The translations under genes and the position numbers were made by a program. Source: an uncultured delta proteobacterium (GTDB lineage Bacteria; Desulfobacterota; Desulfobacteria; Desulfobacterales; JAFDCJ01). From it: DNA of 64,000 bases. The notes under the pieces were generated by a model. It searched no databases, was not told where the DNA came from, and saw nothing but the letters and a program-made list of their open reading frames with translations. The stretch is taken from NCBI GenBank assembly GCA_963769935.1, contig CAVYNY010000015.1, forward strand, positions 1-64,000. Direction: 5' to 3'. Positions 14,330-35,901 of this stretch are shown here, piece after piece; position 1 is the stretch's first letter, and every line of letters starts with the position of its first letter.

Positions 14330-14421
14330 TGTAGGAAAAACACCTACCGCTCAAAAAGACGATCACTTACAAAAAATTAGGACGGATGCCGATACAATTT
14401 GTGCTTCGAGTGGATTATTTT
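14330..14421 (+). promoter_or_regulatory. Motif 1 promoter module (before BON/DedA-PAP2)
   Basis: TGTAGGA...ACTTAC...CCGATA(14389)-N21-TATTTT. Confidence 0.65.
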
Positions 14422-14449
14422 TGCGGAAAGTCGAGGGCAAAACCGGAAA

Positions 14450-14668
14450 AATGAGATCGGATTGCTTGAGGTCATTAACAAAATCAATGTCCTGGCCTCA
14501 GACCGCTCGGACACCGCCATCCAACGGGATCTGCGTCTAAGATTTCTGGACAGCCTGGACCCGGAGCTGCAGAATATCACCGTCCACGTGGCGGACGGCC
14601 GGGTCACCCTTTCCGGTCGGGTAGACTCCGAATCCCAGAGAAGAAGAGCCGGTCTGATAAATGATTAA
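14450..14668 (+). pseudogene. BON-domain fragment
   Basis: DRSDTAIQRDL...ITVHVADGRVTLSGRVDSESQRRRA; no convincing in-frame start or signal peptide. Confidence 0.6.
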
Positions 14669-16779
14669 TTTCGCAATGTACAATCAACCTCTTTCCATCA
14701 ATCGAGCAATTAGGAAGCGGGGGCTATTGGATTGCTTTCTCGGCAGCCCTTGTCGAGACGACTATCGGTCTCGGCCTCATATTACCCGGCTCGACCATCA
14801 TTCTTTTCCTTGGAACACTGTCCGGACGCGGCTATCTCGACCCGGTTTATCTTATATGCTTTTCGGTCTCGGGGGCCATTATCGGAGACAACCTGAATTT
14901 CTATCTTGGGCGAAAATATGGAACCAAATGGCTGAAAGGCGGGTTCTGGCTGCTAAAGCCCGACCATATTGAAAAAGCCAAACAATTTATGGATGCTCAC
15001 GGCGCAAAGAGCATTTTCCTCGGCCGTTTTATACCCAGCGTCAAGGAGATAGTTCCTTTTATCGCCGGCAGCGTGAGGATGAAGCAAAGAACTTTCATGT
15101 TCTGGAATGTTCTTGGGGCGGTCGGCTGGGGGGTTGAATGGGTTTTTGCCGGTTACATATTCGCGCAATCCCTTAGTCTCGCCGCACTATGGCTTTCACG
15201 GGCCGGTCTGTTTTTTGCCTTTCTTTTCATATTTGGCAGCATCCTCTACTTCTTCAAATGGCTGATTGTCAGAAAAGGAAAACAATTTTTAATCGTTGCC
15301 GCCTCCCTCGGCCGATCGATCAAAGAGGCGGTGATAAAGAATGAACACGCGGCGGTATGGATGCAAAAACATCCGCGCAGCATCTCGTTTTTGAAGAGCC
15401 GGTTTGATCCGAGCAAATTTTCAGGACTGCCCCTTTCCATATTAACGCTGTCGTTTGTCTATGTTCTGGCTTTGTTTGCCGGGATAGTGGAAGACCTGAT
15501 AACGTCCGAACCCATTATTGCCGCAGACATCCGCATTGCCAATCTTTTATCCGCCTTGCGCACCGAGGCCCTGACCGATTTCTTTACCTGGATAACCGTG
15601 CTCGGTAAGAGCCGGGTCATCCTGGGATTCATAGCCATCTCAGTTGGACTCCTATGGATTTGGAGGAAACGCTATTGCATACTCCCTCTTCTAACAGCGG
15701 TTGTCGGCAGTGAGTTTTTTACGTATTTGGGAAAACTCACCTTCCAGCGCCCTCGTCCGGAGATGGCTGTATATTCAGAAAATTCTTTTTCTTTCCCGAG
15801 CGGCCATGCGACGATAGCCGTCGCTTTTTACGGATTTGCGGGGTACCTCATCGCGCGCTTTTCACGTAGCTGGAATAGAAAGGTCAATATATTTTTCATC
15901 ACAATTCTTCTCATTACAGCGATCGGCTTCAGCCGGATATATCTCGGGGAGCATTATGTAAGCGACGTGTGGAGCGGTTATCTTGTCGGAGCGATGTGGC
16001 TGATTATCGCGGTTTCCCTGTCCGAATGGTTGCAGCAGAAAGTTAAGGGTGATCGATTCATATCCCCTGATGCCGGGGCCCGTCCGATCTCTTTTGTTCT
16101 CGCCTTCGTCGCCATCGTGTTCTATGCCGGGTATGCCATAAATTACCATCCTTCGCCGGTGTCAGTTAAATCGATTAGCACTGTTGTTGTCCCGAAAAGT
16201 ACGGATATTTTTACCAATGAACAAATGAAATACACCGAGACGCTGATCGGTGACAGACAAGAGCCGATAAACTTTATTTTCGTAGCCGGGGATGACGGCC
16301 AGCTGGCTGCAACAATGGCGCAGGCTGGGTGGACTTTAACCGACAAGGCGAAAATATCATCTTTTATCAGGGCAGTTAAGGCCTTGATATTAAGAAGGCC
16401 GTATCCATCCGCGCCGATCGCGCCTTCATTCTGGAATACGAAAATACAGGATTTGAGTTTTGCCAAGATGCCGGGACCAAATTGGCTCAGTGATGCGCAG
16501 CATGTTAAAATATGGCGCACCCACTTTGTGCTGAAAAATGGAAATAAAATCTATGTCGGCATGGTTAATGCCAACCATGGTTTCAAGTGGGGCTTTATTC
16601 CGAAAATCAGTCCGGATTTAGATGCTGAACGAGAGTTGTTGTATCAGGATCTTGTTCGGACAGGAAAAACAAAAAATCACTTGAAGATACAGCTGGTAAA
16701 ACCTCAACTCGGAAAAAATTTTATAGGAGAACAATTTTTTACCGACGGCAAGGCCTATATAATTTCACTCGCAATATGA
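14661..16779 (+). CDS. DedA + PAP2 + LssY C-terminal domain membrane protein, frameshifts in 5' part
   Basis: DedA motifs (LPGSTI, GDNLNFYLGR, GRFIP) in frames upstream of and within ORF 14989; PAP2 RPRP, SFPSGHA, SRIYLGEHYVSDV; LssY-like EPINFIF...AGW...D-ER. Confidence 0.85.
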
Positions 16780-16945
16780 TCAGCGAACCGGGCAGGAATT
16801 TCAGGATAGGGACTTTGCTCCAATGGAAATAGTGGAATGTTGCAATAGTGGGAAAATGGTTTTATCGGTTAGTTCGTTTGCCGGTTTGACAAAACGAGTC
16901 AACGGGCCAACCGGCCCACCGGCCAATTGCAGCACCGTCTAACCG

Positions 16946-17037
16946 TGTAAGACGATCACGGACAAAAAAGTCAGTAGATATCCTACCTGAATATCGGAAG
17001 GATTCCGATACCCCCGCCGCGCAGATCTTCTTATTTT
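16946..17037 (+). promoter_or_regulatory. Motif 1 promoter module (before tandem USP and PRC copy 2)
   Basis: TGTAAGA...TCCTAC...CCGATA(17005)-N21-TATTTT. Confidence 0.7.
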
Positions 17038-17097
17038 CGATTTACAAAGAGGAAAAAGACAAAAATCGAATAAATGCGCAGGAGAGGAGAACCTTGC

Positions 17098-17979
17098 ATG
17101 ACGGACGCGGAAAACAGACCGCCTTACATTCTCGTAGCTGATGATTATTCGACAGAAGCCCAGGCGGCCGCCCAGGCGGCTATCCAGATCGCACGCAACC
17201 AGAACCTGGCGGTTCGAGGGCTCTATGTGGTAGACGAGGTCCTGGCCCTTGACACCTATGCCAACTACCATGCCGAACTGCCGCTTCTGTCACGGACATC
17301 TAATGGTGACCACCGCGAACCGACCTCGCGCGCCGAACTCCTGAGTTGGTTCCAGTCCCAGGGGGAGGCAGCCCTGAATCGGCTGCAGAATGCGTGTGCC
17401 GAAGCCGGGGTACCGGTGAGCGCTAAATTACTGGCCGGCGGCGTACCGGAAATGGTAATCCGCGAGGCTGCCCAGGCTCAAATGCTGGCTCTTGGCCGCC
17501 GCGGCCATCGTCACGGGGATGATGTGAGTTCCCTGGGGTACAATTTCCGTAAAATTGCCCATCAAGTGCACCTGCCCATGCTTGTAGGAGGCCTGACAAC
17601 GCCTTCCCTGCATCGTCTGTTATTGGCCTACCACGGCCTGGCGCACGCCGACGAGGCCCTGGCCTGGGCCGCACGGCTGCAGCGGGGTCTATCGGCCGAG
17701 GTAATCGTGCTAACCGTTTTTGATGACACCAAATCCGGCTTATCCGGGATTAGTCTGGAAGAAATCAAGGCCAGGCTGGCGCACAGCGACCTGGCTGCCT
17801 ATCGCTTCTTAACCGGCCAAGGCCGGCTATCGACCGTAATGGCCGACATTGCGGTCGCCCACGATGTCGATCTGATCATCCTGGGCAGTTATCGCCACGG
17901 TTCCCTGGTCGAATGGCTCGTTGGAAGCACCGTGGATCAATTACTGCAGGCGGCATCGTTGCCGATACTCATCGCCTGA
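17098..17979 (+). CDS. Tandem-domain universal stress protein
   Basis: ILVADDYS...LALGRRG; DLIILGSYRHG...GSTVDQLL; RBS GAGGAG. Confidence 0.85.
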   Translation: MTDAENRPPYILVADDYSTEAQAAAQAAIQIARNQNLAVRGLYVVDEVLALDTYANYHAELPLLSRTSNGDHREPTSRAELLSWFQSQGEAALNRLQNACAEAGVPVSAKLLAGGVPEMVIREAAQAQMLALGRRGHRHGDDVSSLGYNFRKIAHQVHLPMLVGGLTTPSLHRLLLAYHGLAHADEALAWAARLQRGLSAEVIVLTVFDDTKSGLSGISLEEIKARLAHSDLAAYRFLTGQGRLSTVMADIAVAHDVDLIILGSYRHGSLVEWLVGSTVDQLLQAASLPILIA

Positions 17980-18029
17980 AGACGCAAATCGATGACTCCC
18001 AGCAAGAATATACAAGGAGGAATTGAAAA

Positions 18030-18935
18030 ATGAAAAAATATCTTTTCGTAACACTTTTGGCCATTGTTATGTTTTTCCCGCCGGAAGGTGTTCTGGCGAA
18101 TGCTAAAAACAGCCCGGTGCAGGACAGCACTACGGGCAGCGTGCGGGAAGGCGATCATATCAATGCTTTTCGCATTGATAAAATTATTGGTTCCGCGGTG
18201 ATGAATCTCGATGGCAAGCGCATAGGAACCATCAATGACCTGGTCATCGACATCGATACGGGAAATATTATGTATGCCGTCCTCGAATTCGGTGGATTTA
18301 TGGGCTTCGGCGACAAGCTGTTTGCCGTTCCCTGGCACTCCCTGACAACGGTTCCGGCCGAAGGAATATTCATCATCGATCAATCAAAAGCAAAACTTGA
18401 AAAAGCCCCGGGTTTTAATAAGAATAATTGGCCGGATGTCGGTGATCGGACCTGGGGAGCCGGGATATACGAATTCTATCGCCACCACGTTCCCGAGCAT
18501 CTGGCTTCTGCGGCTCCGGAAACCTCTCCGCAACAGAAAATTCATCGCGGCTACCTTCCCTATCGAGAGTATGCGGACGAGCTTTACCCTTATCCGGGTG
18601 TTTGGCAAAACATCTATGGAAATTTGTTTAATCCTAAAAAAATAGAAACCGTGAGCGGCGAAATCGTAAGGGTTGAATATCATGAGGAGGCAAGACTGAT
18701 CATTTATACCGACGCGAAAAAGCCTGTTCTGGTGGCTTTAGGACCGACCGGCTATTTAGAAAGCCAGCCCACTACCCTGCGCCCGGGCAATAGGGTAACT
18801 GTGACCGGGTCAGAGGTAGTTGTGGATGATACACCTTTTTTGATCGCTGAAAAAATAAAAAAGGGAAAGGAGGAATTGCAGTTAAGAGACAATGAAGGTA
18901 ACCCCATGTGGATCGGGTGGAAACAAATCAAGTAA
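18030..18935 (+). CDS. Secreted PRC-barrel/OB-fold protein, copy 2
   Basis: Full-length paralogue of 4726..5628 with long identical blocks. Confidence 0.75.
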   Translation: MKKYLFVTLLAIVMFFPPEGVLANAKNSPVQDSTTGSVREGDHINAFRIDKIIGSAVMNLDGKRIGTINDLVIDIDTGNIMYAVLEFGGFMGFGDKLFAVPWHSLTTVPAEGIFIIDQSKAKLEKAPGFNKNNWPDVGDRTWGAGIYEFYRHHVPEHLASAAPETSPQQKIHRGYLPYREYADELYPYPGVWQNIYGNLFNPKKIETVSGEIVRVEYHEEARLIIYTDAKKPVLVALGPTGYLESQPTTLRPGNRVTVTGSEVVVDDTPFLIAEKIKKGKEELQLRDNEGNPMWIGWKQIK

Positions 18936-18967
18936 TTTAACTTCTCGAAATTTCTACAACTGTTTGA

Positions 18968-19003
18968 GTAAAGAATCCTGGCCCGCTGGGCCAGGATTCT
19001 TTA
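18968..19003. terminator. Perfect 16-bp hairpin (repeat copy 3), probable bidirectional terminator
   Basis: taaagaatcctggccc-gct-gggccaggattcttta between convergent genes; includes the kinase stop codon. Confidence 0.7.
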
Positions 19004-19900
19004 TTTATGCAAATTTGATTCCATGGCCCCGGGAATCACCACAGCGGCGCGGGTGCCCTGTCCAGGCTTTGAAATCAGATTCAGCCGACCGCCCAGCCGG
19101 CCGAGACGTTCGCGTATACTGATTAAACCAAACCCATTTTTAATTGCCTGCTCATCGGCCAGACCGGCGACGTCGAACCCGATACCGTCATCCACCACGT
19201 TTATGCGGATCTGGTTGCCTGCGCTGCTGATCGAAATGGTCACATGCCGTGCCTGGGCATGTTTGACGACATTGATCAACAGCTCCCGGATGGTTCGAAA
19301 GAGCAGGACCCGCAAATCCCGGCCCAACGTATCGGTAGTTCCGTCGCCGATGCACTCAACCTGGATCCCATGGGCTTCCTGAATGCGATGCGCGAGGCTG
19401 CGCAATGTTGCCTCCAGGCCGGATTCATCCAAAATCCAGGGATAGAACTCGAACATCAACAACCGGGTTTGTTTAATGGCCTGATCAATAAAGTCGAGAC
19501 ACTCGCCCACCCGCATATGGCGGGTGCCGTCAGGCAAATCCGTCTGCAGGGATTCCAACTTGAAGCGACAACCTGCCAGACATTGAGCGACGGTATCGTG
19601 AAGATCCTGCGCCAGCCGCTGCCGTTCCCGCTCTTCGCTTAACCGCAGCTCCGATGCCAGCGCGCGGACCTGATTCCTGCAGCTGCGCAGCTGCTTCGCG
19701 GCCTGTTTGCACTTCGCAGTTTCCTGCTGCACTTGGGCTTTGGCTTTCAGCAGTCGGACGCTATGCTCCACCACAGTCAGCTTCGACTCACGCAAGGCAG
19801 GTTGAGATTCCATTAAGGGTTGGCTCTTCCATTGGTTCAATTCATCAATTTTATACCTGGCATTCAGCAGGTCCATCTTGATTTTGTCCGAATTTTCCAT
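19001..19900 (-). CDS. Soluble HisKA_3/HATPase_c histidine kinase (NarX/UhpB type) without sensor domain
   Basis: EERERQRLAQDLHD, ELLINVVKHA, DDGIGF, GFGL; RBS AGGAGGAG before ATG 19900; only a coiled coil N-terminally. Confidence 0.9.
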   Translation of the reverse strand: MENSDKIKMDLLNARYKIDELNQWKSQPLMESQPALRESKLTVVEHSVRLLKAKAQVQQETAKCKQAAKQLRSCRNQVRALASELRLSEERERQRLAQDLHDTVAQCLAGCRFKLESLQTDLPDGTRHMRVGECLDFIDQAIKQTRLLMFEFYPWILDESGLEATLRSLAHRIQEAHGIQVECIGDGTTDTLGRDLRVLLFRTIRELLINVVKHAQARHVTISISSAGNQIRINVVDDGIGFDVAGLADEQAIKNGFGLISIRERLGRLGGRLNLISKPGQGTRAAVVIPGAMESNLHK

Positions 19901-19979
19901 AGTCTTGCTCCTCCTTGTGGATTTGACGATCCCGCCGGAATTTCCCGGTTGAACGCAGCCGGCGCGGTTTGATACCGAC

Positions 19980-20072
19980 ACCATATATCTTCCCGCTTAA
20001 ATCCGGTATCGGAGTCTCTCCTATTTTAATGTAAGATTTTGAGAGACTTTTTGTGTCCGTGTTTGTCTTACA
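19980..20072 (-). promoter_or_regulatory. Motif 1 promoter module (before histidine kinase)
   Basis: Minus strand TGTAAGA...TCTTAC...CCGATA-N21-TATGGT. Confidence 0.7.
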
Positions 20073-20434
20073 AGCCGAAACCGGCCAAGGAAACCCGCCC
20101 TCCGGCTTGCCGGCCGGCAGAGCATGCCCTTAAGTTGTATAAAATGTTTTCTTAAAGTGAGCTGCCTTATTGAAAGTCCTTAGCGATATTACGTGATCCG
20201 AGCCGGAGGCCAGTATCGTAGCGCTATAATTGCCTGACTGATTTCTGCCAAACACAAAGAGCTAAAAATGCCAACGTTGGGGCAAAGTACATTGTCGACC
20301 TTATTTTAGGTGGAAAATCGATGTATTTTTGCCGGATGCAGGCGTCGCCTCTTGTGAATCAGGATTAAAAAGCTAATTATTGACCAAGCGAGAAATCTAA
20401 AGAAATTCACAGTAAAGGAGGAGACGGCCATTCC

Positions 20435-22309
20435 ATGAACACCGACAGCTACCCGCCGATCGGCGAATACGGTTTCATCGCTGACTGTCATTCCGCAGCC
20501 CTGGTTTCCAAATCAGGCTCCATCGACTGGTGCTGCATGCCGCGCATCGATTCCAGCAGCTGCTTCGGCAGAATACTCGATTGGAAGAAGGGGGGATCCT
20601 GCCGGATTTCACCCGCGAACCCCTATGAGAGCCGCCGCCGCTACCTGGACCGCACACTCGTTCTCGAAACCACCTTCCAAACCGAGACCGGCCGGGCGCG
20701 CCTTCTCGACTGTTTTACCATGCGCCGCGGCGGAGAGCACGACCCCCATCGGCAGATCCTGCGTGTCATCGAAGGCCTGGAAGGAAAGGTCGATTTCACA
20801 ATAGACATCGTTCCGCGATTCGACTTCGGCGCCATTAAGCCGTGGATTAGACGCTACCGCCAGGATCATCACATGGCTGTCGGCGGCAGCGACGGGCTGC
20901 TCATTTCCAGCGATGCATCCGTAAAAATGAAGCACCGCCACGATTTAGCCGGTTCATGCATTGTCGCTGCCGGGCAGCGCAAGCACCTTTCCATCCTGCA
21001 TCGGCCGCCGGAAAGTCTCGGTGAGAATCTGGTGGACGTACCGGATCCCAGGGAGCAGGACCGCCGCCTGCAGGAAACTATCGAATGGTGGCAAGCCTGG
21101 TCCGGCCAGGGCCAATGCGGCGGACCCTATGCCGACCAGCTGCAACGTTCGGCCATTGTGTTAAAGGGGCTTTCCAACGCGCCGACCGGCGCCATCGCAG
21201 CCGCACCGACCACCTCGCTGCCCGAATCGCCGGGTGGAACCCGCAACTGGGACTATCGCTTTTCATGGATTCGGGACTCTTCTTTCACGGTTCGCTCGCT
21301 GGCCCAGCTGAACTATACCCATGAAGCCGATGGATTCCGAAGGTTCATCGAACGCAGTGCGGCCGGCAGCGCGGATCAACTGCAGGTTCTCTACGGTATC
21401 GGCGGTGAACGGCGCCTGCATGAATATGAAATTGGAGATTTGGAAGGCTATCGCGGGGCAAAACCGGTGCGGATCGGCAACGCCGCCGAAAGCCAGATTC
21501 AGCTGGATGCCTACGGTGAACTTCTGGATCTGGCTTGGCACTGGCACTGCCGCAGGCGCTCCCCGGACCACGACTACTGGGAATTCCTGGTGGAGCTGGT
21601 CAACAAGGTTTGCAGCTGCTGGCAGAGAACTGATTGCGGCATCTGGGAATTTCGCGGGGCACCGCGGCATTTCGTGCATTCCAAGGTTATGTGCTGGGCG
21701 GCGCTCAATTACGGAATCAAGCTGGCCGGCGATCTCCGCCGCAAGGCTCCGCTGCAAAAATGGCAAAAAGCCCGCGCAGCGGTGCGTCGAGCGGTTGAAT
21801 CGCAGGGCTATGATGCTGAGCGTGGCATATTCATTCAGGCCTTTGACCACCCCGGAACGGATGCAGCGCTGCTGCTGCTTCCCATGGTCGGCTTTGTTGC
21901 CTATGACGATAAACGCATGATCCGCACCACAGACGCCGTGCGTGAAGAGCTCGGCCAAGACGGACTGCTGCGCCGCTATTCAGACGGTGATGACGGCATG
22001 CAGGGCCGTGAAGGCGTATTTCTGGCCTGCTCCTTCTGGCTGGCGGAGTGCCTGGCCCGGCAGCACCGGCTGGACGAGGCCCATCAGACCTTAAAACGCG
22101 CCCTTGAGGTGGGCAACGACCTGGGCCTTTTTGCGGAAGAATACGATACCGCGGCCGATGAAATGCTGGGTAATTTCCCGCAGGGACTCACCCATCTGTC
22201 GCTGATCACCGCGGCCGTCGCCCTGAATGAAATCGAAGGGGCTTCGGAGGCCGGCTCCAACAACTGCAAAATCTCAGCGACTCCCGATTCCCGGGGTTCC
22301 GATTCTTAA
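20435..22309 (+). CDS. Glycoside hydrolase family 15 (trehalase/glucoamylase-like)
   Basis: AAPTTSLPE, RNWDYRFSWIRD, GIWE, GNFPQGLTH. Confidence 0.9.
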   Translation: MNTDSYPPIGEYGFIADCHSAALVSKSGSIDWCCMPRIDSSSCFGRILDWKKGGSCRISPANPYESRRRYLDRTLVLETTFQTETGRARLLDCFTMRRGGEHDPHRQILRVIEGLEGKVDFTIDIVPRFDFGAIKPWIRRYRQDHHMAVGGSDGLLISSDASVKMKHRHDLAGSCIVAAGQRKHLSILHRPPESLGENLVDVPDPREQDRRLQETIEWWQAWSGQGQCGGPYADQLQRSAIVLKGLSNAPTGAIAAAPTTSLPESPGGTRNWDYRFSWIRDSSFTVRSLAQLNYTHEADGFRRFIERSAAGSADQLQVLYGIGGERRLHEYEIGDLEGYRGAKPVRIGNAAESQIQLDAYGELLDLAWHWHCRRRSPDHDYWEFLVELVNKVCSCWQRTDCGIWEFRGAPRHFVHSKVMCWAALNYGIKLAGDLRRKAPLQKWQKARAAVRRAVESQGYDAERGIFIQAFDHPGTDAALLLLPMVGFVAYDDKRMIRTTDAVREELGQDGLLRRYSDGDDGMQGREGVFLACSFWLAECLARQHRLDEAHQTLKRALEVGNDLGLFAEEYDTAADEMLGNFPQGLTHLSLITAAVALNEIEGASEAGSNNCKISATPDSRGSDS

Positions 22310-22387
22310 ACAACCGTAAAAAGTTTTGCCGTTATTACGAAGTGGTGGATTTTTAGCACCTCTTGCCGGACGAGTTATTCGGCCGCT

Positions 22388-26335: not shown

Positions 26336-26804
26336 TTATTTAGGTATGACCGGTGCGACATTAACACCCAAATGGTAAACCAGTTCACCGCCGTAATAGG
26401 CCGTAATTATCAGCAGGACCACCCCGGCCATCCCCGGCAGAAGCTGCCATCCAACCCACGCCGCCCTGCAGGGGGTACTTGCGCCACAGGACCCAAAGCC
26501 GCAGCAGGCAGTATAAGCTGAAGACAGCTATCGTGATCAGCGCCAGAGTTTCGTGGGTTTCAAGCGGACCCATGGCAAAGCCCTTCGAAACCGCTTTATC
26601 TAAGGCCATATCACCAAAGATCGCAGCAACCCCGGCCGAGAGTGTGCCCAGCAGCAAAGCCCACAATGAAATCAGCGGCAGGCCCTGTCGGCCGGCCAGA
26701 TCTTTTTTTGTCAAGAGCACAATTATGTCCAGGGCCACGGCAGTGATTAAAAAGACAATCGGAAAATGAACCAGCATGGGATGAATAAGCTCGATTGAAA
26801 TCAT
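26336..26804 (-). CDS. DUF2231-family membrane protein, frameshift near 26435
   Basis: IHPMLVHFPI, HE, and AYYGGELVYHLGV in the second frame. Confidence 0.8.
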
Positions 26805-26905
26805 AAGGCCTCCTAACGTTTGAAATTTGAACTCCGTTCAGCAACCGGTAAAACTCGCATCAGCGATATCGTCGGCTGCCTTTTGTCAGACGACTCATCG
26901 CACCT

Positions 26906-26997
26906 ATATTAAAACCCAAAATGCGAATCCCGTATCGGCGCCGGTCTTATTTTTGCGTAAGATTCAGGCGCATTTTTGCGTAGGCATTTGTCTCACA
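26906..26997 (-). promoter_or_regulatory. Motif 1 promoter module (before DUF2231)
   Basis: Minus strand TGTGAGA...TCTTAC...CCGATA-N21-TAATAT. Confidence 0.75.
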
Positions 26998-27060
26998 CGA
27001 CCGATTGCCGCGCCTGGTTGTATGTTCGGCAAGGTGATCGTTTTGGCCGGGGAAGCCTAT

Positions 27061-27152
27061 TGTAAGACAAATATCTACAGAAAGTCGGGGCAAAATCCTA
27101 CCCGATTATCAGACCGGCACCGATACCGGATTCGTACTCAAAAACTTATAGT
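27061..27152 (+). promoter_or_regulatory. Motif 1 promoter module (before receiver/degP)
   Basis: TGTAAGA...TCCTAC...CCGATA(27120)-N21-TATAGT. Confidence 0.75.
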
Positions 27153-27180
27153 GTGTGCAAACAAAGAAAGGTGAAAGGCC

Positions 27181-27570: not shown

Positions 27571-27731
27571 AAAATCAACGAAAGGAGGAATGGCTCCGCT
27601 TTAATGTAAATTCGGTCGCGACCGTTTACAACCGGTGGCGCGAAACCGTAGACAGCCCATAAAAACTTCGACCATCCGGTTGTGCAGTAAGAAATTTATT
27701 CATCATGAAAATAAGTCAGGAGGAATTCAAC

Positions 27732-29186
27732 ATGAAAAGAAAAATTGTAAACGTTCGATTACTATTACTGGTGTTTACCCTCGTTGGTGCCATCGCTTTA
27801 ATTGCACCGTTCAAATACGTCCTCGCCGCGCAGGGCGACAGCTTTGTTACGCCTCCGAGTTTTGCGGATTTAGCGGACAAGGTCAAAGGATCGGTCGTGA
27901 ACATCTCCACCACTCAGGTGGTGGAAGGAGCTAATCCACTGCTTCCGTTTATGGGGCCCGGCTCACCGTTTGGGAATTTTTTCGGTCCGAATTCTCCGAA
28001 AGGATATTTCGGCATCAATCCGCATGAAAAAATGGAAACCCATGCCTTGGGCTCCGGTTTTGTCATCAGCTCCGACGGGCTGATTCTTACCAACAACCAC
28101 GTGGTTGAAAAAGCAACCGAAATAAAAGTCAAATTAATAGACGGCAGGGTTTACGATGCCAAATTGGTCGGAAGGGACCCGAAAACTGATCTGGCGCTCA
28201 TCCAAGCCAAACCAGATAAATATTTTCCCAAGCCGGTCGTGCTTGGGGATTCGGATGCCATGCGCGTCGGCGACTGGGTCATGGCCGTCGGCAACCCCTT
28301 CGGGTTGGGCAACACGGTGACAACCGGCATCATCAGTGCCAAAAGCCGTGTCCTCGGCGCCGGGCCCTATGATGATTTTCTGCAAACCGATGCCGCGATC
28401 AACCCCGGCAACAGCGGCGGGCCGCTGTTCAATATGCAGGGTCAGGTAATCGGAATCAACACCGCCATCATTGCGCAGGCCCAGGGCATCGGATTTGCCA
28501 TCCCCATCAATATTGCCAAAAATCTTCTGCCCCAGCTCAAAACAGGTAAAATTATCCGGGGATGGCTCGGGATAATGATTCAGGATATCACACCGGAGCT
28601 TGCCAAATCGTTCGATCTCAAGAGTTCAAAGGGGGTCATCATTTCGGATGTGGTCAAAGGCAGTCCGGCTGATCAAGCGTCGCTGCAGCGCGGGGATGTG
28701 ATTGTGCAGTTTAATGGAAAAGAAATTGAAAATGCCCGCATGCTGTCCCAGATGGCGGCGGCAACTGCGCCGAACACGCGCGTCAGCATCGAAATCCTGC
28801 GCAATGGTCAGCCGGAAACCGTCTCCCTGACGGTCGGAACCATGCCCGAAGGGAAGCTGACAACCGCGCCTTCTGAAAAATCAGAACAAGGCGCCTGGGG
28901 CATGACCGTTCAGGAACTCACGCCGCCGGTGGCCGGCCAGCTTGGATTGGAGCCGGGAACAACCGGAGTGGTGATTACCGACATCAAAGCAGGCAGCCCT
29001 GCTGCTGAAGCAGGATTGCAGGCAGGTGATTTAATCACGGAAGTAGGCCACAAGCTTATCAAAAATCTGGATGACTACCAGCAGGCTTTGAAACAGGTAA
29101 AAAGTGGTGAAAATTTGTTGCTGTTGGTCAAACGAGGCAGCGGAGCATTTTATGTCGTGCTGACACCGCCTTCAAAAAACCAGTAG
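27732..29186 (+). CDS. degP: DegP/DegQ (Do) serine endoprotease with two PDZ domains
   Basis: GSGF, TNNHVV, DLAL, QTDAAINPGNSGGPL. Confidence 0.92.
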   Translation: MKRKIVNVRLLLLVFTLVGAIALIAPFKYVLAAQGDSFVTPPSFADLADKVKGSVVNISTTQVVEGANPLLPFMGPGSPFGNFFGPNSPKGYFGINPHEKMETHALGSGFVISSDGLILTNNHVVEKATEIKVKLIDGRVYDAKLVGRDPKTDLALIQAKPDKYFPKPVVLGDSDAMRVGDWVMAVGNPFGLGNTVTTGIISAKSRVLGAGPYDDFLQTDAAINPGNSGGPLFNMQGQVIGINTAIIAQAQGIGFAIPINIAKNLLPQLKTGKIIRGWLGIMIQDITPELAKSFDLKSSKGVIISDVVKGSPADQASLQRGDVIVQFNGKEIENARMLSQMAAATAPNTRVSIEILRNGQPETVSLTVGTMPEGKLTTAPSEKSEQGAWGMTVQELTPPVAGQLGLEPGTTGVVITDIKAGSPAAEAGLQAGDLITEVGHKLIKNLDDYQQALKQVKSGENLLLLVKRGSGAFYVVLTPPSKNQ

Positions 29187-29197
29187 TCCATGATCCG

Positions 29198-29338
29198 CAC
29201 GGGGAAAACCGAATCTTGACGAGTTGAGCGGAAACCCGATGTGTGAAGGCGGAAACATGCGAAGCAATTGGCTGCGCAAAGCCAAGGGGCGGCAGTCCCT
29301 CCGTAAGGACGGGATTGCCGCTTCAGCATTTTCCCGTG
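29198..29338. other. 141-bp highly structured intergenic element (MITE or ncRNA candidate)
   Basis: Ends cacggggaaaa / ttttcccgtg; internal hairpins ttggct-gcgcaa-agccaa and gcggcagtccc-tccgtaaggac-gggattgccgc. Confidence 0.45.
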
Positions 29339-29496
29339 ACAAACTATCAACCGAGTGTTAAGAGCATAAGGCATAACATTCTTCCTATCCGATCAGGAAT
29401 CATTTATAGGCGCTTTCATGGAGCTGCCTGGTATTCAGAAAGTCAGTATTTACTGAAAATTATTCATGCTGAAGAAGAAGAAGGAGGAGAAGTAGC

Positions 29497-29886
29497 ATGC
29501 CGGCCAAAAACATCTACGACCTTTATATAACGGACACAGATAGAAATATTATCCTGGAAGAAAAGTCCGTGGCTGCCGAAACAGCCGAAAAAATTATCCG
29601 GGAACATCCCTGGCGCAGTGAGCTGCAAACCTATGTCCAACTGTGGAAACAGGCCACTAGATTCAGTTTCAGCATCCGTTACATGGAGGCGGTAAAAAAG
29701 TTTGGTGTGGGATTTTCCGATAAGGTGTCGCTGTTTAAATTGCCGCTGCCCTACGTCGGGGCAAGCTATGGCCATTTTGACGATATGGATGATGTCATCG
29801 CGTCGCTGCATCTATTCCTCGAAGGCGAGTTTGAAAAATTGGAACAATTTTTAGCAAGGTATCGCCCCGAACAAAAGGGGGATTAG
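29497..29886 (+). CDS. Hypothetical cytoplasmic protein (129 aa)
   Basis: Strong RBS AGGAGGAG and an isolated ORF; no recognised motif. Confidence 0.7.
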   Translation: MPAKNIYDLYITDTDRNIILEEKSVAAETAEKIIREHPWRSELQTYVQLWKQATRFSFSIRYMEAVKKFGVGFSDKVSLFKLPLPYVGASYGHFDDMDDVIASLHLFLEGEFEKLEQFLARYRPEQKGD

Positions 29887-29943
29887 GTTACCTTAACGTC
29901 GCAAAAATCTGTATAATTATTTAACAGGGGCGGGCGCAAGACC

Positions 29944-30070
29944 GTCGCATTTACGAGGTCGATGCTGGATGCTCGATACTTGATGCTGGATATTCAGCAA
30001 GGCACCGCGAACGAAATCCAGAAACATCAAGCATCAATCCAAAATGCCAATGATTGTCGTCGGGACAGCC
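29944..30070 (+). repeat. Heptamer-rich dispersed repeat, short copy
   Basis: ggtcgatgctggatgctcgatacttgatgctggatattcag...; inverted relative to 26098-26281. Confidence 0.7.
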
Positions 30071-30087
30071 AAAGCATTGCACAGGGT

Positions 30088-32801
30088 TTACTTTGCATCG
30101 CCTTTTGGCGGTATGATCAGAATCTTTTTCAATTCTTCCATTGCATTTCCAAAATTCTGCCATTTTCCCTGTTCCAGTGCTTTCTGAGCATTTTCAAATT
30201 CTTTCTTGGCACGAATCAACTCATCTGTTTGAACCGGGGCGGCAATGGTGTGCTTTTCAGGCTGGGCGGCACCGAAGACGGCTCGCCAGGGCCTGCTCGA
30301 GGGTCGGCTCCATGACCACCTTATCGCCTTGAATGACAATGATGCGTTTCAGCTGGGGGATGTTTATTCCTTCAGCGATGAGATACACCGGCTCCACGTA
30401 GAGAAACGCGTTGTCAATGGGAATCACAATCAAGTTGCCGCGGATGACCCGCGATCCCTTCTGGTCCCAAAGGGACAATTGTTCGGATATCAGGGTATTC
30501 TGATCGATCATGGCTTCAATTTGAATGGGACCGAATGTCAGCCGCTTTTTGGGGAGTTGATAGACGATCAGGTGTCCGTACTGGGGAAAATCACATTTGG
30601 CCGCCATCCACGCGATCATATTGTCCCGGCCCTGGGGGGTAAAGGGCGTCATCAGAAGATACTGAAGCGCTTGCGTGCCGGGCAGACGCATCAGGATGTA
30701 ATAGGGTTCAAGCCGAATTGCGCTGCCCGCATATTTTTCCTGGGGCAAGTCCCAGAGATCCTCCTGGTTGTAAAATACCTGGGGGGTGGTCATATGATAC
30801 GTTCGGTAAAGATCGGCTTGAATGTCAAACAGATCCTCGGGGTAGCGGAGGTGATTTTTCAGATCCTGAGGCATGTCCGCCAGGTCTTTGAAGGCGCCCG
30901 GGAAGGCCCGCCGGTACAAAGCCAGGATCGGGTCCTGGGGGTCCATCACATAAAGCTGCACCGTCCCGTTATAGACGTCCACCACGGCTTTCACCGAGTT
31001 GCGGATGTAATTCAGCCTTATTGAACGCTTTTTCATACGGTGCTGAATAGGGAAAGCGGTCGGATACCGTGTAGGCATCCTGAATCCAGTAGAGTTTTCC
31101 TTCACTGAGCACAAGGTATGGATCCTGATCAAGTTCTAAAAAGGGGGCGATCCGGGCGACACGCTCGCGCACATTGCGCCAGATCTGAATGCGACTTTCG
31201 GGTCCGGTGTATGAAGTGAGCAAAATGTTGATGTCGGACTGGGTCCAGGCAAACAAAGCCCTTTTCCAGAAGCTGTCAAGGGGAATACCCCCTTTGCCCT
31301 GATAGCTGGTGTAGACGTTTTGATCGCCTTTGGGGTAGTCAAACTCCTTGATCTTGGTCGCTACAATTCGGTAGCCGGGTGTTTTTTCACCGTAGTAGAT
31401 CGCCGGCTGATCCACCGTCAAACCGAATGCGGACTCGGGCGGAATATTGTCGATAATGTAGTCGGGCAGGCCCTCGGGAGTCTTTTTGGAGACAAAGTTC
31501 ATGACCGGGCCATAGCCGTGAGTGAACTGAAGGTATTTATTGACCCAGGTTCGGGCCTTGGGGGGCAGCTGGGCCGCCAGTTCACGGGCCGAGAGCATCA
31601 CCTGGTGATAGCCGTCTTCCAGGTGATAGCGATCCACATCCACCTGGTAAAATTGATAATACAGCCGAATTTCCTGGGTCTGACGATAGGTTTGAAGAAT
31701 GGGCCGCCAGTCCCAGATACGAATATTGTCAATTGTTTCCTGATTCTTGGGGATATCATCCAGGGTGAGGTCTCCCAAAGCCGGATAGGACGTTTCCTTA
31801 ATTTGATCGAGCTGAAAAGCCTTGCGGGTAAATTCGATATTATGCTTAAGATACGGCGTTTCCAGTTCAAGTTCGCTGGGCTGCACCTTGAATTTTTGCA
31901 CCAGGCCGGGCAGGATGATAATAATGATAAAATACAAGGCAAAATAACTGCAGAACGCTGATCGGAAGCATCTTAAAACGCCGGGTGAAAAAACCCACGG
32001 CAATCATAATTGCCAGTACAATGGAAGCCAACAGCATGATCCAGAGCGTGATGCGGCTGACGTTATCGGCGGTATACCCCACGCCGTATACCACGCCGGT
32101 CGTTGAATAGAGAAGTTCGAAACGATCCAGATAATACCCCCACCCCCACACGCCGATCAAAAAGATGAAAAGCAGCGGACAGGTGCCCGATCACCTTCCA
32201 GCTGCCGTGCAGGATTTCGCCCCGGCCGAACCGAAACGCCCCAAAGTAGGAATAGGTGAACGAGCACAATGAGCAGGGTTATGAAGGTCAGGCCCATCAT
32301 GCTGTTTTGGATCAGTTCGTAAAAGGGAAGTCGAAAAAGATAAAAGCCGATGTCCTTGCCGAAGATCGGATCCGGTTGGCCGACGGCTCCTCCCCAGTGA
32401 AAACGCAGATAGGTGTCCCACTCGGGATGAAAGTTGAGCGCGAATATCAGACCGATGACGGCCGAGATTACCAGCCCGCCCGCTTTCAAAAACCCGGGGG
32501 TAATCCCGACGCCCGTTTGGGTGTAAATCCGGGTGGTATCTCCATCCATGGCTCGGGGAAAGGCAGCCGTGGTTGCTGCCGCAAACCGGAAATTAATCCA
32601 GGTATAAAGAAAGACGACCAGGAAGGACACACCCGAAAGAGACCATTTGACGGACAGCAGCCGCCAGAAAATATTCAGGTATCCTACCTGCCGCATCCAG
32701 AGCCATTGCTGCATCAAGCCGGATGCCACCAAGCAAAACACAAGTAAAATGAACGCCGCCGCGATCAAGGATCCTAAAATTACAGCAGGTCTTTTTTGCA
32801 T
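30088..32801 (-). CDS. UPF0182 family membrane protein, split by several frameshifts
   Basis: DPIFGKDIGFYLFRLP, NIRIWD, YYQF..VDVDRY, FTHGYG, NYIRNSVK, RGNLIVIPI...LYVEPVY across consecutive ORFs. Confidence 0.9.
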
Positions 32802-32843
32802 GGCTATCCTCCCTAATTAGTGGTTGAACGAAAAACCGTCCAT

Positions 32844-32935
32844 ACTATAAATCTCACAGTTGAACGCAGGTATCGGTGCTGGTCTGATAATCGAGTAGGA
32901 TATTGGTGCTTTTCTCTGTAAATGTTTGTCTTACA
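32844..32935 (-). promoter_or_regulatory. Motif 1 promoter module (before UPF0182)
   Basis: Minus strand TGTAAGA...TCCTAC...CCGATA-N21-TATAGT. Confidence 0.75.
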
Positions 32936-32945
32936 AAATATGGAA

Positions 32946-32974
32946 TTGACAAACGGCATATTCGCATTTATGGT
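32946..32974 (+). promoter_or_regulatory. Sigma70-like promoter for USP
   Basis: TTGACA-N17-TATGGT. Confidence 0.55.
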
Positions 32975-33006
32975 TTAATCATAAAATAAATCTGGAAGAA
33001 GACACT

Positions 33007-33450
33007 ATGAATCGTATCCTGGTTGCCATTGACTTTTCGGAAGTAACCGACGACGTGCTCTCAAAAGCGATAACGCTGACCAAAGCACTGCAAGGCCGGC
33101 TGCGTATACTTCATGTAAATGATTCAGCGCCGTACAGCTATGCTCCCAAGAAGGATACCCCAAGTGAATCGATGCCCCAAATCGCCAAGCCATCGATGGC
33201 GGCCAACAATCTGGGAGCGATTCGGACCCGGATGTCAAAAGAACAGTTCGAGGCAGACTATCGATTGATGGAAGGTCCGGCGGCAGACAATATATTATCG
33301 GCCGCCAGGGAATTCGCGGCCGATATCATTGTGATCGGCGCGCGAGAGCATGGAAAATTTTTCCACTGTTTATTCGATGATACCACCAACTCTCTAATCC
33401 GCCATTCACCGTGTCCCATCCTGGTCGTACCGCATGTGGTCAGCAAATAG
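33007..33450 (+). CDS. Universal stress protein (single domain)
   Basis: RILVAIDFS, ADIIVIGA, SPCPILVVP. Confidence 0.9.
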   Translation: MNRILVAIDFSEVTDDVLSKAITLTKALQGRLRILHVNDSAPYSYAPKKDTPSESMPQIAKPSMAANNLGAIRTRMSKEQFEADYRLMEGPAADNILSAAREFAADIIVIGAREHGKFFHCLFDDTTNSLIRHSPCPILVVPHVVSK

Positions 33451-33466
33451 CAACACCGATTTGGGT

Positions 33467-35446
33467 TTATGAGACGCGCGGCCCAAGTATGGCTAAAATT
33501 TCAGGTTCGTCCATCTTTTCTTTTTCGAGCAATACCTGGGCCATTTTTTCGAGTTTATCGCGTTTGTCCGTCAGCATTTGCTTGGCATCCGCATAGCAGG
33601 CTCGGATAATTTCCTGCGTCTCATCGTCGATCATCTGTCCAAGTTTTTCAGAATGCTGCATCATGCCGGGGCCCTGACCCAGGAACAGATCCTGCTGATG
33701 GTCGACCAGCGATATATTCGGCGCCTGTTGGCTCATACCATAAACCGTGATCATATTACGTGCAATTTTGGCTATTTTTTCCAGGTCATTGGAGGCACCG
33801 GTGGAAACCTCGCCAAAGACAATTTCTTCGGCTGCCCGGCCTCCCAGCAAGCCCTTGATTTTACCGGTCAACTCGCTGCGCGACATCAGAAAACGGTCTT
33901 CCAGCGGGGTTTGCAGCGTGTAGCCCAAAGCGCCGATACCCCGCGGCACAATGGAGACTTTCTGGACCGGATCCGCTCCGGCAGTAAAATGGCCCACGAT
34001 GGCATGCCCGGATTCATGGTAGGCGACCACCTCCCGTTCATGGGGATTGATCAGCTTGTTCTTTTTCTCCAGCCCTGCGATCACCCGCTCGATCGCATCC
34101 TGGAAATGTTGCTGGGAGATTTCGTTCCGGTCTTTACGGGAGGCTAATAAAGCCGCTTCATTGCAGACATTGGCAATTTCAGCCCCTCCAAATCCAGGCG
34201 TTTCAGCAGCCAGTTTGCGCAGGTCGACGTCGTCTTTCAGAGTCAAATTACGGGTATGCACTTCAAATATTCGAACCCGTCCGATAAGATCCGGTCGATC
34301 CACGAGAATCTGGCGGTCAAACCGCCCGGGCCGCAGCAAGGCCGAATCAAGAACCTCGGGCCGGTTGGTGGCCCCCATGATAATGATTCCGATTTGGGGA
34401 TCGAAACCGTCCATTTCGCTGAGCAACTGGTTAAGCGTGTTTTCCCTTTCATCGTTTCTACCCATATAAGGACCCTGGGACCTGCTTTTGCCGACGGCAT
34501 CCAGCTCGTCGATAAAAATAATGCACGGGGCCTTGGCCTTGGCTTCTTTGAAGAGGTCGCGCACCCGGGCGGCGCCGACTCCGACGAACATCTCCACAAA
34601 ATCCGAGCCGCTCAGGTTGAAAAAAGGCACATTGGCTTCCCCGGCCACGGCGCGCGCCAGCAGTGTCTTACCCGTTCCCGGAGGACCTACCAGCATGATG
34701 CCTTTGGGTAGTTTGGCCCCCAGACGCGTGTATTTGCCCGGTTCTTTTAAAAAGGACACGACTTCTTTGACTTCTTCAACCGCCTCATCGACCCCGGCGA
34801 CGTCCTCGAATGTGACTTTGAGCGATGGGTCGACTTCATATATTTTGGCTTTGTTTTTGCCCAGGTTCAAAAAGCCGGCGCCGCCGCCGCCCTTGCCCAT
34901 TTTGCGCATGATCCAACCCCAGACCAGAAAGAGAATGCCGAAAGGAATGATCCAATTGGAGATCAAATGGGCGAAAAAATGCGATTCGATTTTGCCCTGG
35001 TAAGTAACGCCGTGCTGCTGCAGGTCTTCCAGCAGGTTGGGATCGGTGAGGGGGATGACCGTAAATTGGCGTTGAACTTCCTCTTGGCGGGCCTTTTCCG
35101 ATTGCGTCAGGTTTTTTTCAAAATTGAGATACCAGGGGGTTTGTTTTTGCTGCGGGGTGAAGCTGGGCTTAGCGGAGGAGGGAGGGGGCTCGGTTTCGGT
35201 TTTTTTCGCTGCACTGCCGGTCTGCGGGACAGCTTTGGGAGCAGCCTGATCGGATTTCAGTAAACCGTAGATCCTGTCGGATTCCAAAATTACACTTTCG
35301 ACTTTATTCTTTTGAATAAGATCCCGGAATTTGCTGTATGGCAGCTCTTTAACCGCCGGTCCGGAAAAAAACATGGTTTCCAGAAAAAGCATAATCAAAA
35401 ACATAATCAGGTAATAGCCGATGGAAAACTTGGATCGTTGAATCAT
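33467..35446 (-). CDS. ftsH: ATP-dependent zinc metalloprotease FtsH
   Basis: Two TMs, [26 protein letters not shown]. Confidence 0.95.
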
Positions 35447-35530
35447 TAACGCCTCCCCGGAGCAGTTGTCATTAATTTCGCTTATTTGCCAGGCGACTGG
35501 AACGTGCCGCCACCTCTTTAAATTAAACCA

Positions 35531-35622
35531 ATATTAAATCCTGAAAGGCGGTTCGGGTATCGGCGCAGGTCCTATTTTTGTGTCGGATTCCGTGGAGATT
35601 TGCCGTAGGCATTTATCTGACA
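35531..35622 (-). promoter_or_regulatory. Motif 1 promoter module (before ftsH)
   Basis: Minus strand TGTCAGA...TCCGAC...CCGATA-N21-TAATAT. Confidence 0.75.
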
Positions 35623-35692
35623 CGAACTTGCTCAGCCGCACTTGAAAAAACAGCTCCCACAAGATCCTTAAGCTGTTATCAGGTTCCAAATA

Positions 35693-35754
35693 AGTTTCTT
35701 TTTTGATCAGATCGGCCGTTGTTTTGGCCGGCGGCTGGGCTGACACCTGAAACC
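35693..35754. repeat. AGTTTCTT-GATCAGA dispersed repeat
   Basis: Matches 44152-44213 and 44003-44058. Confidence 0.7.
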
Positions 35755-35809
35755 TTTTACACTGGTCAACATCGGCGACAGCCAGGCTGTGGCCTTCTCG
35801 CCGAAACAA

Positions 35810-35901
35810 TGTCAGACAAATATTGACACCAAATCTGGCGAAACTCCTACCTGATTATCAGACCGACACCGATACCGCAATCACCTCCGGCAGCTTATCG
35901 T
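35810..35901 (+). promoter_or_regulatory. Motif 1 promoter module (before P-type H+-ATPase operon)
   Basis: TGTCAGA...TCCTAC...CCGATA(35869)-N21-TATCGT. Confidence 0.75.

Follow-up and report, generated by a model that had tools for sequence, protein, structure and literature searches.

Eight fixed-geometry promoter arrays in an uncultured desulfobacterial genome and a candidate UvrY-related regulator

Arrays and genes in the window

The window, a 64,000-nt stretch from an uncultured delta proteobacterium (contig CAVYNY010000015.1 of assembly GCA_963769935.1), carries eight modules of 92-93 bp. These and the genes they face are as follows.

14330..14421, +: array 1; units 14330-14348, 14353-14371 and 14376-14394; -10 TATTTT at 14416-14421
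14462..14668, +: BON-domain fragment, 68 aa, first ORF past array 1
14989-16779, +: split DedA/VTT-PAP2-LssY_C gene, after the BON fragment
16946..17037, +: array 2; -10 TATTTT at 17032-17037
17098-17979, +: two-domain universal stress protein (USP), downstream of array 2
18030-18935, +: PRC-barrel protein, after the USP
19980..20072, -: array 3, extra base between units 1 and 2; -10 TATGGT at 19985-19980
19001..19900, -: HisKA_3-HATPase kinase, H-box His kept, no recognised sensor domain; predicted feedback component
26906..26997, -: array 4, divergent from array 5; -10 TAATAT at 26911-26906
26385..26804, -: DUF2231 membrane protein
27061..27152, +: array 5, top score of the eight; -10 TATAGT at 27147-27152
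27181-27570, +: stand-alone receiver protein, the recurrent cross-phylum target
27705-29186, +: DegP/HtrA, after the stand-alone receiver
32844..32935, -: array 6; -10 TATAGT at 32849-32844
30257..32801, -: UPF0182 gene, in three pieces
35531..35622, -: array 7, divergent from array 8; -10 TAATAT at 35536-35531
33467..35446, -: FtsH protease
35810..35901, +: array 8; -10 TATCGT at 35896-35901
35951-38467, +: P3A proton-efflux ATPase, from ATG
38514-40037, +: second DegP, after the P3A ATPase
40111-40968, +: TauE/SafE, after the second DegP

A preliminary description had reported the eight modules, their hexamers (TATAGT, TAATAT and TATTTT twice each, TATGGT and TATCGT) and their target genes; all were found in place, with the refinement that the BON target is a 68-aa fragment. 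Split genes in the window comprise UPF0182, an amino-acid permease, V-ATPase I, BON and DedA-PAP2.

Each array consists of three 19-bp units of the TGTARGA-N5-NCYKACA type with a 23-bp period, followed 21 bp on by TAnnnT. The units had been described as 17-bp palindromes; their number and 23-bp spacing stood, while 19 bp (7-5-7) is the better reading, and in the middle unit the right half is conserved but the left half (columns 23-29) is not. The ungapped alignment of the eight modules held, the sole extra base being that of the 19980 module, which L029 and L103 also have ahead of their kinase ortholog, so it is not a sequencing error. Exactly eight of the 65 CCGATA words in the window (40 on the plus and 25 on the minus strand) are followed by TAnnnT at 21 bp, and these are the eight modules, all of which point at a gene start about 22-95 nt past the predicted +1. 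Genome-wide, CCGATA-N21-TAnnnT alone was not enriched (70 occurrences at 21 bp against 38-76 at 12-31 bp), so that the significance lies in the whole array; single 19-bp units were barely enriched (39 at N5, 23-32 at other spacers). Leave-one-out scores of the modules were 48.2-74.8 bits, with maxima of 14.8 and 17.8 in two locally shuffled genomes. A search of the window against Rfam gave no hits.

Using a matrix built only from other genomes, we detected 13 arrays at 38-88 bits in the 8-Mb genome (G000), each facing a downstream ORF, with none above 16 bits in two shuffles. Eight of the 13 lie within 22 kb, and one Syntrophales locus precedes an IS1595-like ORF, as might be expected of a mobile or recently duplicated repeat. 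This origin is largely refuted, and we consider it extremely improbable: identity among the eight modules is 0.64 inside the array and 0.25-0.28 in the flanks, the conservation being limited to the sites, and the unrelated flanks together with the orientation of every copy toward an ORF argue that the array is not mobile. Moreover, the Syntrophales case is one orthologous locus, and a true repeat of this genome looks different, giving 120 blastn hits with continuous identity.

Recurrence across phyla and promoter register

A GTDB scan returned at least 120 array loci from about ten phyla, though the spacing constancy among these matches is partly built in, as the query allowed only two spacings. 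Arrays turn up in many sediment and groundwater bacteria that are unrelated to one another, with 16 copies in a 2.5-Mb Nitrospiraceae bin. With the strict pattern the distribution was patchy (5 of 22 genus mates and 1 of 300 phylum genomes), and a phylum-wide co-occurrence test was uninformative at 1/300 genomes.

The -10 lay outside the search pattern. Among the matches listed, TAnnnT was found at +21 in 70 of 125 arrays (48 of 88 non-redundant) and the exact hexamer was absent there in 55 of 125; the background was 2.0-2.4 per offset and the reverse-side control gave 4 (all) and 3 (non-redundant). The -35 position, 17 bp from this hexamer, matched TTGACA at only 1-2 of six bases in 98 of the 125 arrays listed, which suggests that the promoters should be weak without an activator. 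A sister clade of the regulator described below (45-50% identity) has two units. Of 16 matched loci, 13 have a TTGACN whose first two bases are the last two of the proximal unit, and in 8 of these 13 TAnnnT follows 17 bp later. This TTGACA in the same register supports the predicted sigma70 geometry, so that the earlier proposal of sigma70 promoters lacking a -35 gains support from data outside the search. Provided that +1 lies 7 nt past the hexamer, the predicted unit centres are -89, -66 and -43. Sediment metatranscriptome contigs (four runs of one study; 6-17% of words) aligned to 16500-36400 and 35330-36130 represented pieces of relatives' target genes; arrays 7 and 8 had no cover in them, and as such contigs cannot give transcription starts we regard this evidence as neutral.

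The sigma28 -10 consensus resembles CCGATA, and FliA is present in G000. That the modules are sigma28 promoters with CCGATA as the -10 element nevertheless has very little probability, given that, among the matches listed, just 3 of 93 arrays have GCCGATAA and 30 have CTGATA variants, that conservation of a sigma70-type -10 is seen 21 bp further on, that the targets are not flagellar, and that no FliA scored above cut-off in array-rich G008 and G359 (two of five genomes).

A candidate UvrY-related regulator

The candidate binder is a NarL-family regulator at C35:67937-68569 of G000 (minus strand), flanked by two arrays. The protein (PF00072 and PF00196) shares 37% identity with E. coli UvrY, has a comparable recognition helix, and retains D8, D9, D54, S82 and K104, with D54 aligning with D54 of UvrY. 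Among the five full receiver-GerE proteins of G000, it alone has a UvrY-type helix. In the PDB no close structure was found, the best match being VraR. The regulator gene is overlapped by that of a dCache-HAMP-HisKA_3 kinase with a periplasmic dCache domain, and genes upstream of such regulators encoded HisKA_3 kinases in all 16 cases scanned. The sensor inputs of these kinases vary (5 dCache, 11 PAS/GAF), so no single signal is implied. The preliminary description had missed the regulator, on another contig, as well as the cross-phylum architecture with lineage-specific targets and the BvgA-fhaB parallel. The NarL regulator nearest the window (C15:79.6 kb) was rejected as the binder: its recognition helix differs, no array lies near it, and it has only 29-35% matches in array loci.

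The regulator and the array were linked from both directions. Starting from the motif, a NarL-family gene was found in 20 of 92 array loci among the matches listed, 19 of the 20 with a UvrY-type helix, and 18 such genes lie on the array's strand and stop 4-942 bp before it. Starting from regulators chosen by protein similarity alone (55-88%), an array of at least 18 bits was present within 300 bp downstream on the same strand in 13 of 34 loci, and the best reverse-strand score over all 58 loci was -3; the other 21 of the 34, two of them cut short, had no array nearby. These data lend comparative support to the earlier prediction of a NarL/LuxR-family activator with a GacA/UvrY-like half-site and supply a specific candidate. 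Alternatively, a different DNA-binding protein could read the array, with the neighbouring regulator genes as passengers of the same islands. Whole-genome searches of 12 array-bearing genomes gave no close regulator ortholog in 5 (G005, G013, G022, G358 and G360), these five being 81-90% complete or gap-joined; G013 is 90% complete in about 40 contigs, and in G358 all that remains of the kinase beside an array is its N-terminal 208 aa, suggestive of local loss. Against a different binder stand the tight same-strand adjacency in both tests, the half-site common to UvrY and the matching architecture shift in the sister clade, and we judge it improbable. In a quick regulator tree, which carried long-branch warnings and on which array labels were assigned by hand from array scans of the loci, regulators with three-unit arrays clustered but did not form one clade (5 changes).

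The regulator might also bind in another register or act as a repressor. Conservation is strongest across the right half of unit 2 and the left half of unit 3 and absent from the left half of unit 2, as if the regulator bound everted, EvgA-like pairs such as TCCTACA-N4-AATCAGA; the overlap of the proximal unit with the -35 position could likewise point to repression by occlusion. We regard either possibility as unlikely, though less so than a different binder. Nothing is conserved upstream of unit 1, whose palindrome is complete and head-to-head; UvrY leaves a head-to-head footprint on this same half-site (PMC4682653), and repression fits poorly with promoters expected to be weak without an activator.

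Relation to known systems and predicted function

The array resembles the csrB box of BarA-UvrY/GacS-GacA in its TGT(A/G)(A/G)GA half-sites, placed head-to-head, and in having a candidate binder of the same protein family (PMC4682653). The csrB box, however, is 18 bp (N4) and a single site near -183 that needs IHF (PMC4682653), whereas all arrays here have 19-bp sites (N5), three of them abutting the -35 position. BarA-UvrY has also been called specific to Gammaproteobacteria (PMC4682653). BarA is a hybrid kinase and the kinase here a simple HisKA_3 protein; likewise, many protein-coding operons take the place of the CsrA/RsmA-sequestering sRNAs that UvrY/GacA regulators target at csrB/csrC. 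The NCBIfam UvrY/SirA/GacA equivalog was the best-scoring family for the regulator, yet at 199.7 bits against a cut-off of 280. No BarA/GacS hybrid kinase was found with PRK11107, which we take to be the BarA model (best score 398 bits, cut-off 890; one control exceeded the cut-off), and no CsrA family member was found in any of five genomes, including G000 (97% complete). Assignment to UvrY/GacA thus fails, with a 19- rather than 18-bp site and neither BarA nor CsrA found in these searches. Betaproteobacterial relatives of the regulator have single N4 sites.

A close parallel is BvgA, also NarL-type, at fhaB, where three dimers bind with the best site distal and the proximal one next to the -35, centred at -88.5, -66.5 and -44.5 compared with the predicted -89, -66 and -43 here (PMC9708447). 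BvgA differs in its 14-bp palindromes, 22-bp period and phosphorelay kinase (19 bp, 23 bp and a simple HisKA_3 kinase here), and in that site number varies among its promoters (two or more; PMC9708447), whereas the three-unit layout is nearly invariant across this regulon and across phyla. By analogy, the array promoter would function as fhaB does under BvgA, with a half-site of the UvrY type; this lowers the surprise, as the mechanism class is already known.

In gene content the cluster is like the hypoxia regulons of mycobacterial DosR and the Burkholderia cenocepacia lxa locus, which also gather USP, BON/phospholipid-binding, cation ATPase, Zn protease and small heat-shock genes under one motif, although the lxa motif is FNR-like (TGA-N6-TCA) and differs from the array consensus (PMC3721108). 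The kinase here also differs in having the periplasmic dCache domain. In an lxa-like Paraburkholderia locus, a lone receiver comes after a regulator related to the present one. The tLST islands are similarly patchy and carry extra FtsH and DegP, with YfdX and Hsp20 being array targets in relatives; by contrast, tLST is reportedly largely constitutive and carries ClpK/ClpG, Trx and KefB, and the parts of its literature available describe no such operator array. We found no description of the motif or regulon in the literature searched (mainly open papers). DAP-chip tables for D. vulgaris (PMC3333781) could bear on related regulators.

The predicted outputs in this genus are protein quality control (FtsH, two DegP and an M50 peptidase), USPs, PRC-barrel and BON proteins and ion pumps (H+-ATPase and Kup), a predicted stress-survival cluster as judged from family names. 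Stress-type families behind arrays in separate lineages include USP, DegP, FtsH, YflT, DUF1269, YfdX, Hsp20 and MsrA, as well as ferritin-like, BON, G6PD/6PGD and group-2-like sigma proteins. Elsewhere, arrays also face genes of metabolism and transport, among them MDH, DctQ and formate dehydrogenase, and, at the single Syntrophales locus, the IS1595-like ORF with a downstream gene, presumably methylmalonyl-CoA-mutase-like. The same regulator and geometry could be only a generic promoter of the family that serves no common stress programme, and the window a decaying acquired island with partly vestigial promoters. The non-stress targets, the varied sensor domains, the split genes and the patchy distribution are consistent with this; in contrast, stress-type families recur behind arrays in separate lineages, and G000 retains all eight arrays and the regulator-kinase pair in intact form. 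We consider this reading a serious if doubtful contender.

We favor, with a probability of roughly three in four, a single fixed-geometry promoter element, likely bound by three dimers of the UvrY-related regulator that would activate sigma70 transcription of the predicted stress cluster. The array, its fixed distance to TAnnnT and to gene starts, its cross-phylum recurrence and the repeated presence of a regulator gene just upstream of it are observed. In the proposed mechanism, the adjacent dCache-HAMP-HisKA_3 kinase would phosphorylate the regulator at Asp54 in response to a periplasmic ligand. One dimer would take the best palindrome, unit 1 at about -89, and two more would join it cooperatively on the weaker units, at about -66 and -43, the 23-bp period corresponding to about 2.2 turns. 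The proximal dimer, overlapping the first two bases of the -35 position, would contact sigma70 region 4 (class II) and replace the missing -35. This would leave the A-rich gaps free for alpha-CTD, an arrangement like that of BvgA at fhaB. Two members of the regulon, the stand-alone receiver and the sensor-less kinase, may damp or tune the circuit. Other lineages have other genes wired to this element.

A broader proposal, which we regard as speculative, is an ancient, cross-phylum general-stress switch shared by anaerobic and deep-branching bacteria. A UvrY-related two-component system with lone-receiver feedback would act through a three-dimer promoter whose geometry has stayed exact to the base pair from Desulfobacterota to Nitrospirota, Chloroflexota and Marinimicrobia. 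It would directly drive stress islands and, in Nitrospirota, a group-2 sigma factor, and GacA/UvrY-Csr control and BvgA-type promoters would be states derived from it. The array unit amounts to a 1-bp spacer shift from the UvrY box, and NarL-family arrays form a natural series that trades operator number against the -35 (two units with TTGACA, or three units with none). The finding allows a test of the role that UvrY-like regulators play outside Gammaproteobacteria, where the Csr sRNA target is lacking. For these mostly uncultured lineages, whose regulons are almost unknown, the 65-bp signature with its near-zero background may allow the predicted regulon of this regulator clade to be read in any genome, and gives candidate functions to several DUF genes.

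Operator arrays in the window and the genome

When the eight window modules are aligned on CCGATA, each resolves into three units of 19 bp that repeat every 23 bp, with the following consensus.

Units of the aligned window modules
Unit 1: TGT(A/C/G)(A/G)GA-N5-RYYKACN
Unit 2: right half WCYKAC, the sole conserved half
Unit 3: WAT(C/A)RGA-N5-DCCGATA

The count of eight in the preliminary description was reproduced, with 8 of the 65 CCGATA words in the window, the same eight, having a TAnnnT hexamer 21 bp on, and all eight modules do face gene starts as proposed there. By itself, CCGATA-N21-TAnnnT is at chance level in a whole-genome count; leave-one-out scores of the eight arrays were 48-75 bits, and two local shuffles of the 8-Mb genome gave maxima of 14.8 and 17.8. 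Across the eight, identity fell from 0.64 within the array to 0.38 in the spacer and 0.25-0.28 in the flanking sequence: it is the sites that are conserved, not a repeat.

The window is the beginning of contig C15 of a genome of 8.0 Mb that is 97% complete. Using a matrix derived from 93 arrays, all from other genomes, we detected 13 arrays at 38-88 bits and none above 16 bits in two shuffles.

Arrays in the genome
C15 (window): arrays 1-8, eight of the 13
C35: two arrays, ahead of an M50 peptidase gene and ahead of a USP-Kup operon
C30: two arrays, ahead of ORFs lacking a family assignment or having a dubious one
C13: one array, ahead of an RND efflux operon
C27, 39707 and 34604, minus strand (locus L016): two two-unit variants, nearly identical to each other, neither with a good -35

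The variant at C27:39707 precedes an HlyD-MFS efflux operon resembling window 11313-14149.

Recurrence elsewhere and a candidate regulator

A strict 65-bp pattern matched 5 of 22 genus mates, none of 38 further genomes from the order and 1 of 300 from the phylum. A GTDB scan yielded at least 120 loci. The 80 matches listed come from 55 assemblies, counted from record names, and include Nitrospirota, Desulfobacterales, Syntrophales, Syntrophobacterales, other Deltaproteobacteria, Dehalococcoidia, Anaerolineae, Marinimicrobia, Aminicenantes, Zixibacteria, Methylomirabilis, Opitutaceae, Spirochaetaceae and Obscuribacteraceae; array geometry is conserved across about ten phyla among these matches. 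Mis-binning may explain two short contigs with arrays that carry the labels archaeon and Phyllobacteriaceae. With the pattern relaxed slightly, one Nitrospiraceae bin of 2.5 Mb gave 16 exact matches. The flanks of the arrays in the genome under study are unlike, and the alternative of a mobile repeat, which had been set against recurrence at gene starts, fails.

Of the 126 distinct arrays analysed, 122 show the shorter of the two spacings admitted by the query. The -10 hexamer, which lies outside the search pattern, was found at +21 in 70 of 125 arrays analysed (48 of 88 with near-duplicates removed), with a background of 2.0-2.4 per offset and counts of 4 and 3 on the reverse side; offsets 22 and 23 were likewise raised (12 and 17). 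The suggestion that these promoters lack a -35 held, the TTGACA position being matched at only 1-2 bases in 98 of the 125 three-unit arrays analysed. A reading of the arrays as sigma28 promoters fails.

A NarL-family gene was present in 20 of the 92 array loci with flanking sequence; 19 of these genes encode a UvrY-like helix, and 18 share the array's strand and stop 4-942 bp before it. Of 17 genes found upstream of these regulators, one partial gene was omitted; all 16 scanned encode HisKA_3 kinases, with dCache (5) or PAS/GAF (11) inputs. The commonest first gene behind the array (about a dozen loci among the matches listed, 42-73% identity) is an ortholog of the lone receiver, the stand-alone receiver protein behind array 5 (27181-27570). 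In G193, a genome of deltaproteobacterial type, the elements are packed in the order TauE, permease, kinase, regulator, array, receiver, DegP, FtsH.

The genome under study has 12 GerE matches, of which five are full receiver-GerE proteins. Among these five, the helix KTVSTYR (KTVNSYR, similar, in UvrY) is found only in the C35 regulator (C35:67937-68569, minus strand), which is 37% identical to E. coli UvrY and scores below the UvrY equivalog cut-off. Its gene is preceded by a dCache-HAMP-HisKA_3 kinase gene, ends ~50 bp ahead of one array and is divergent from another; its close homologs are labelled Desulfobacterales. For 34 loci chosen by similarity to this regulator alone (55-88%), an array of at least 18 bits was detected at 13, on the regulator's strand and no more than 300 bp past it, with 2 of the 13 positive genomes already in the motif-first set and 2 of the 21 negative loci incomplete. 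No reverse-strand score in 58 regulator loci exceeded -3.

In 5 of 12 array-bearing genomes searched whole, namely G005, G013, G022, G358 and G360, no close ortholog was found. In G358, the first 208 kinase residues are kept beside an array-led USP gene and the remainder is missing, which points to deletion; the G358 and G360 assemblies are gap-joined, and G013 is 90% complete in about 40 contigs. Two further genomes, G005 and G022, are 81-85% complete and carry a sister regulator.

This sister clade (helix KTVDTYR, 45-50% identity, 22 loci) shows a two-unit array with the 23-bp period at 16 loci. TTGACN begins at the final two bases of the proximal unit in 13 of these 16, and TAnnnT follows 17 bp past it in 8 of the 13, that is, at +21 from the unit's end. 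This placement independently fixes the sigma70 register, and the position of TTGACN shows an overlap of the proximal unit with the -35 position. No sister-clade regulator was found in the genome under study at E 1e-45. The clade is common in the order (L049-L063, L065-L071), with the two-unit array and TTGACA behind the regulator, followed by apparent solute-binding-protein genes (by eye, from N-termini); it likely represents a local transport regulon. The regulator tree is provisional.

Target genes and the island in the window

The targets named in the preliminary description were borne out by Pfam and NCBIfam.

Genes behind arrays
This genus: USP, PRC-barrel, BON, DegP, FtsH, H+-ATPase, YflT, DUF1269, MgtC, glycosyltransferase
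Nitrospirota bins: Hsp20, MsrA, ferritin-like, cupin, DUF2934; sigma70-family factor directly after the regulator
Elsewhere: G6PD/6PGD, YfdX, further kinases, MDH, DctQ, formate dehydrogenase, IS1595-like ORF

Given these family names, a stress or dormancy role is likely in this genus, though not universal. The order PAS kinase, regulator, array, sigma70-family (group-2-like) factor in Nitrospiraceae (L096:3311-4935, L146:3332-5202) may place an RpoS-like sigma under the direct control of a two-component system. In Syntrophales-type bins (L100, L101, L108, L112, L118, L129, L138), the array is followed by a conserved single-locus ORF that combines a weak IS1595 transposase domain with a Zn ribbon and is possibly a domesticated transposase; the gene after it is methylmalonyl-CoA-mutase-like. 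The P3A H+-ATPase of the window (35951-38467) is of the plasma-membrane type, exceeding the TIGR01647 cut-off, a type uncommon in bacteria.

Several window genes are split or truncated: V-ATPase subunit I (2423-4397), BON and DedA-PAP2 (14462-16779), amino-acid permease (22388-23705) and UPF0182 (30257-32801). DUF2231 (26385-26804) is shorter than its 154-aa orthologs, and RNA contigs of relatives have single-base indels near 22883, 25597 and 31016. These defects may reflect decay or assembly error. Genes for GH63/MGH1 glycoside hydrolase, glucose-1-dehydrogenase-like SDR, GH15 trehalase-like protein and G6PD (6767-10819, 20435-22309, 24036-26006), island companions in relatives, have no array of their own and might form a compatible-solute-to-NADPH module.

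A modular repeat lies between arrays 7 and 8 (35646-35760, core 35691-35756), with a second copy at 44151-44215 and 120 blastn matches in the genome. Its constant core ends CTGACACCTGAAACC, its 5´ modules are exchangeable, and it matches many RNA contigs with dissimilar flanks and nothing in Rfam. The repeat widens the divergent spacing of arrays 7 and 8 to 187 bp, compared with 103-141 bp in L084, L140 and L135.

Relation to described systems

At fhaB, BvgA activates transcription through three dimers at -88.5, -66.5 and -44.5, of which the proximal is class II (PMC9708447); the predicted centres of the array units are similar (-89, -66 and -43). The 18-bp repeat bound by UvrY is far upstream of csrB/C, and PMC4682653 describes UvrY as specific to Gammaproteobacteria. 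The resemblance of the half-site to GacA/UvrY boxes was confirmed by checking the csrB/C repeat sequence, which has the same half-site. By analogy, given the similar predicted dimer centres and the shared half-site, the system would likely work like BvgA-fhaB with a UvrY-type half-site. The system belongs to neither family: it has an N5 spacer, a 23-bp period and a simple kinase, no BarA was found above cut-off, and a search for CsrA found none in five genomes.

The lxa/DosR (PMC3721108) and tLST (PMC8290217) systems overlap in gene content but differ in motif or control, as far as the accessible portions describe them, and the available part of PMC3333781 gives no motif for a matching regulator. 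In betaproteobacteria, relatives of the regulator (L227, Ideonella; L228, an lxa-like Paraburkholderia island) come with single N4 palindromes, TGTNGGA-N4-NCCKACA, adjoining regulator, lone receiver and BON genes. This suggests that lxa-like loci hold an unreported second motif.

Literature searches found no description of the motif or regulon, in line with the initial failure to recognise it as described. The arrays are a real promoter architecture and a predicted regulon of a UvrY-related regulator clade, apparently undescribed; the mechanism class is already known, and the architecture is a variant within that class.
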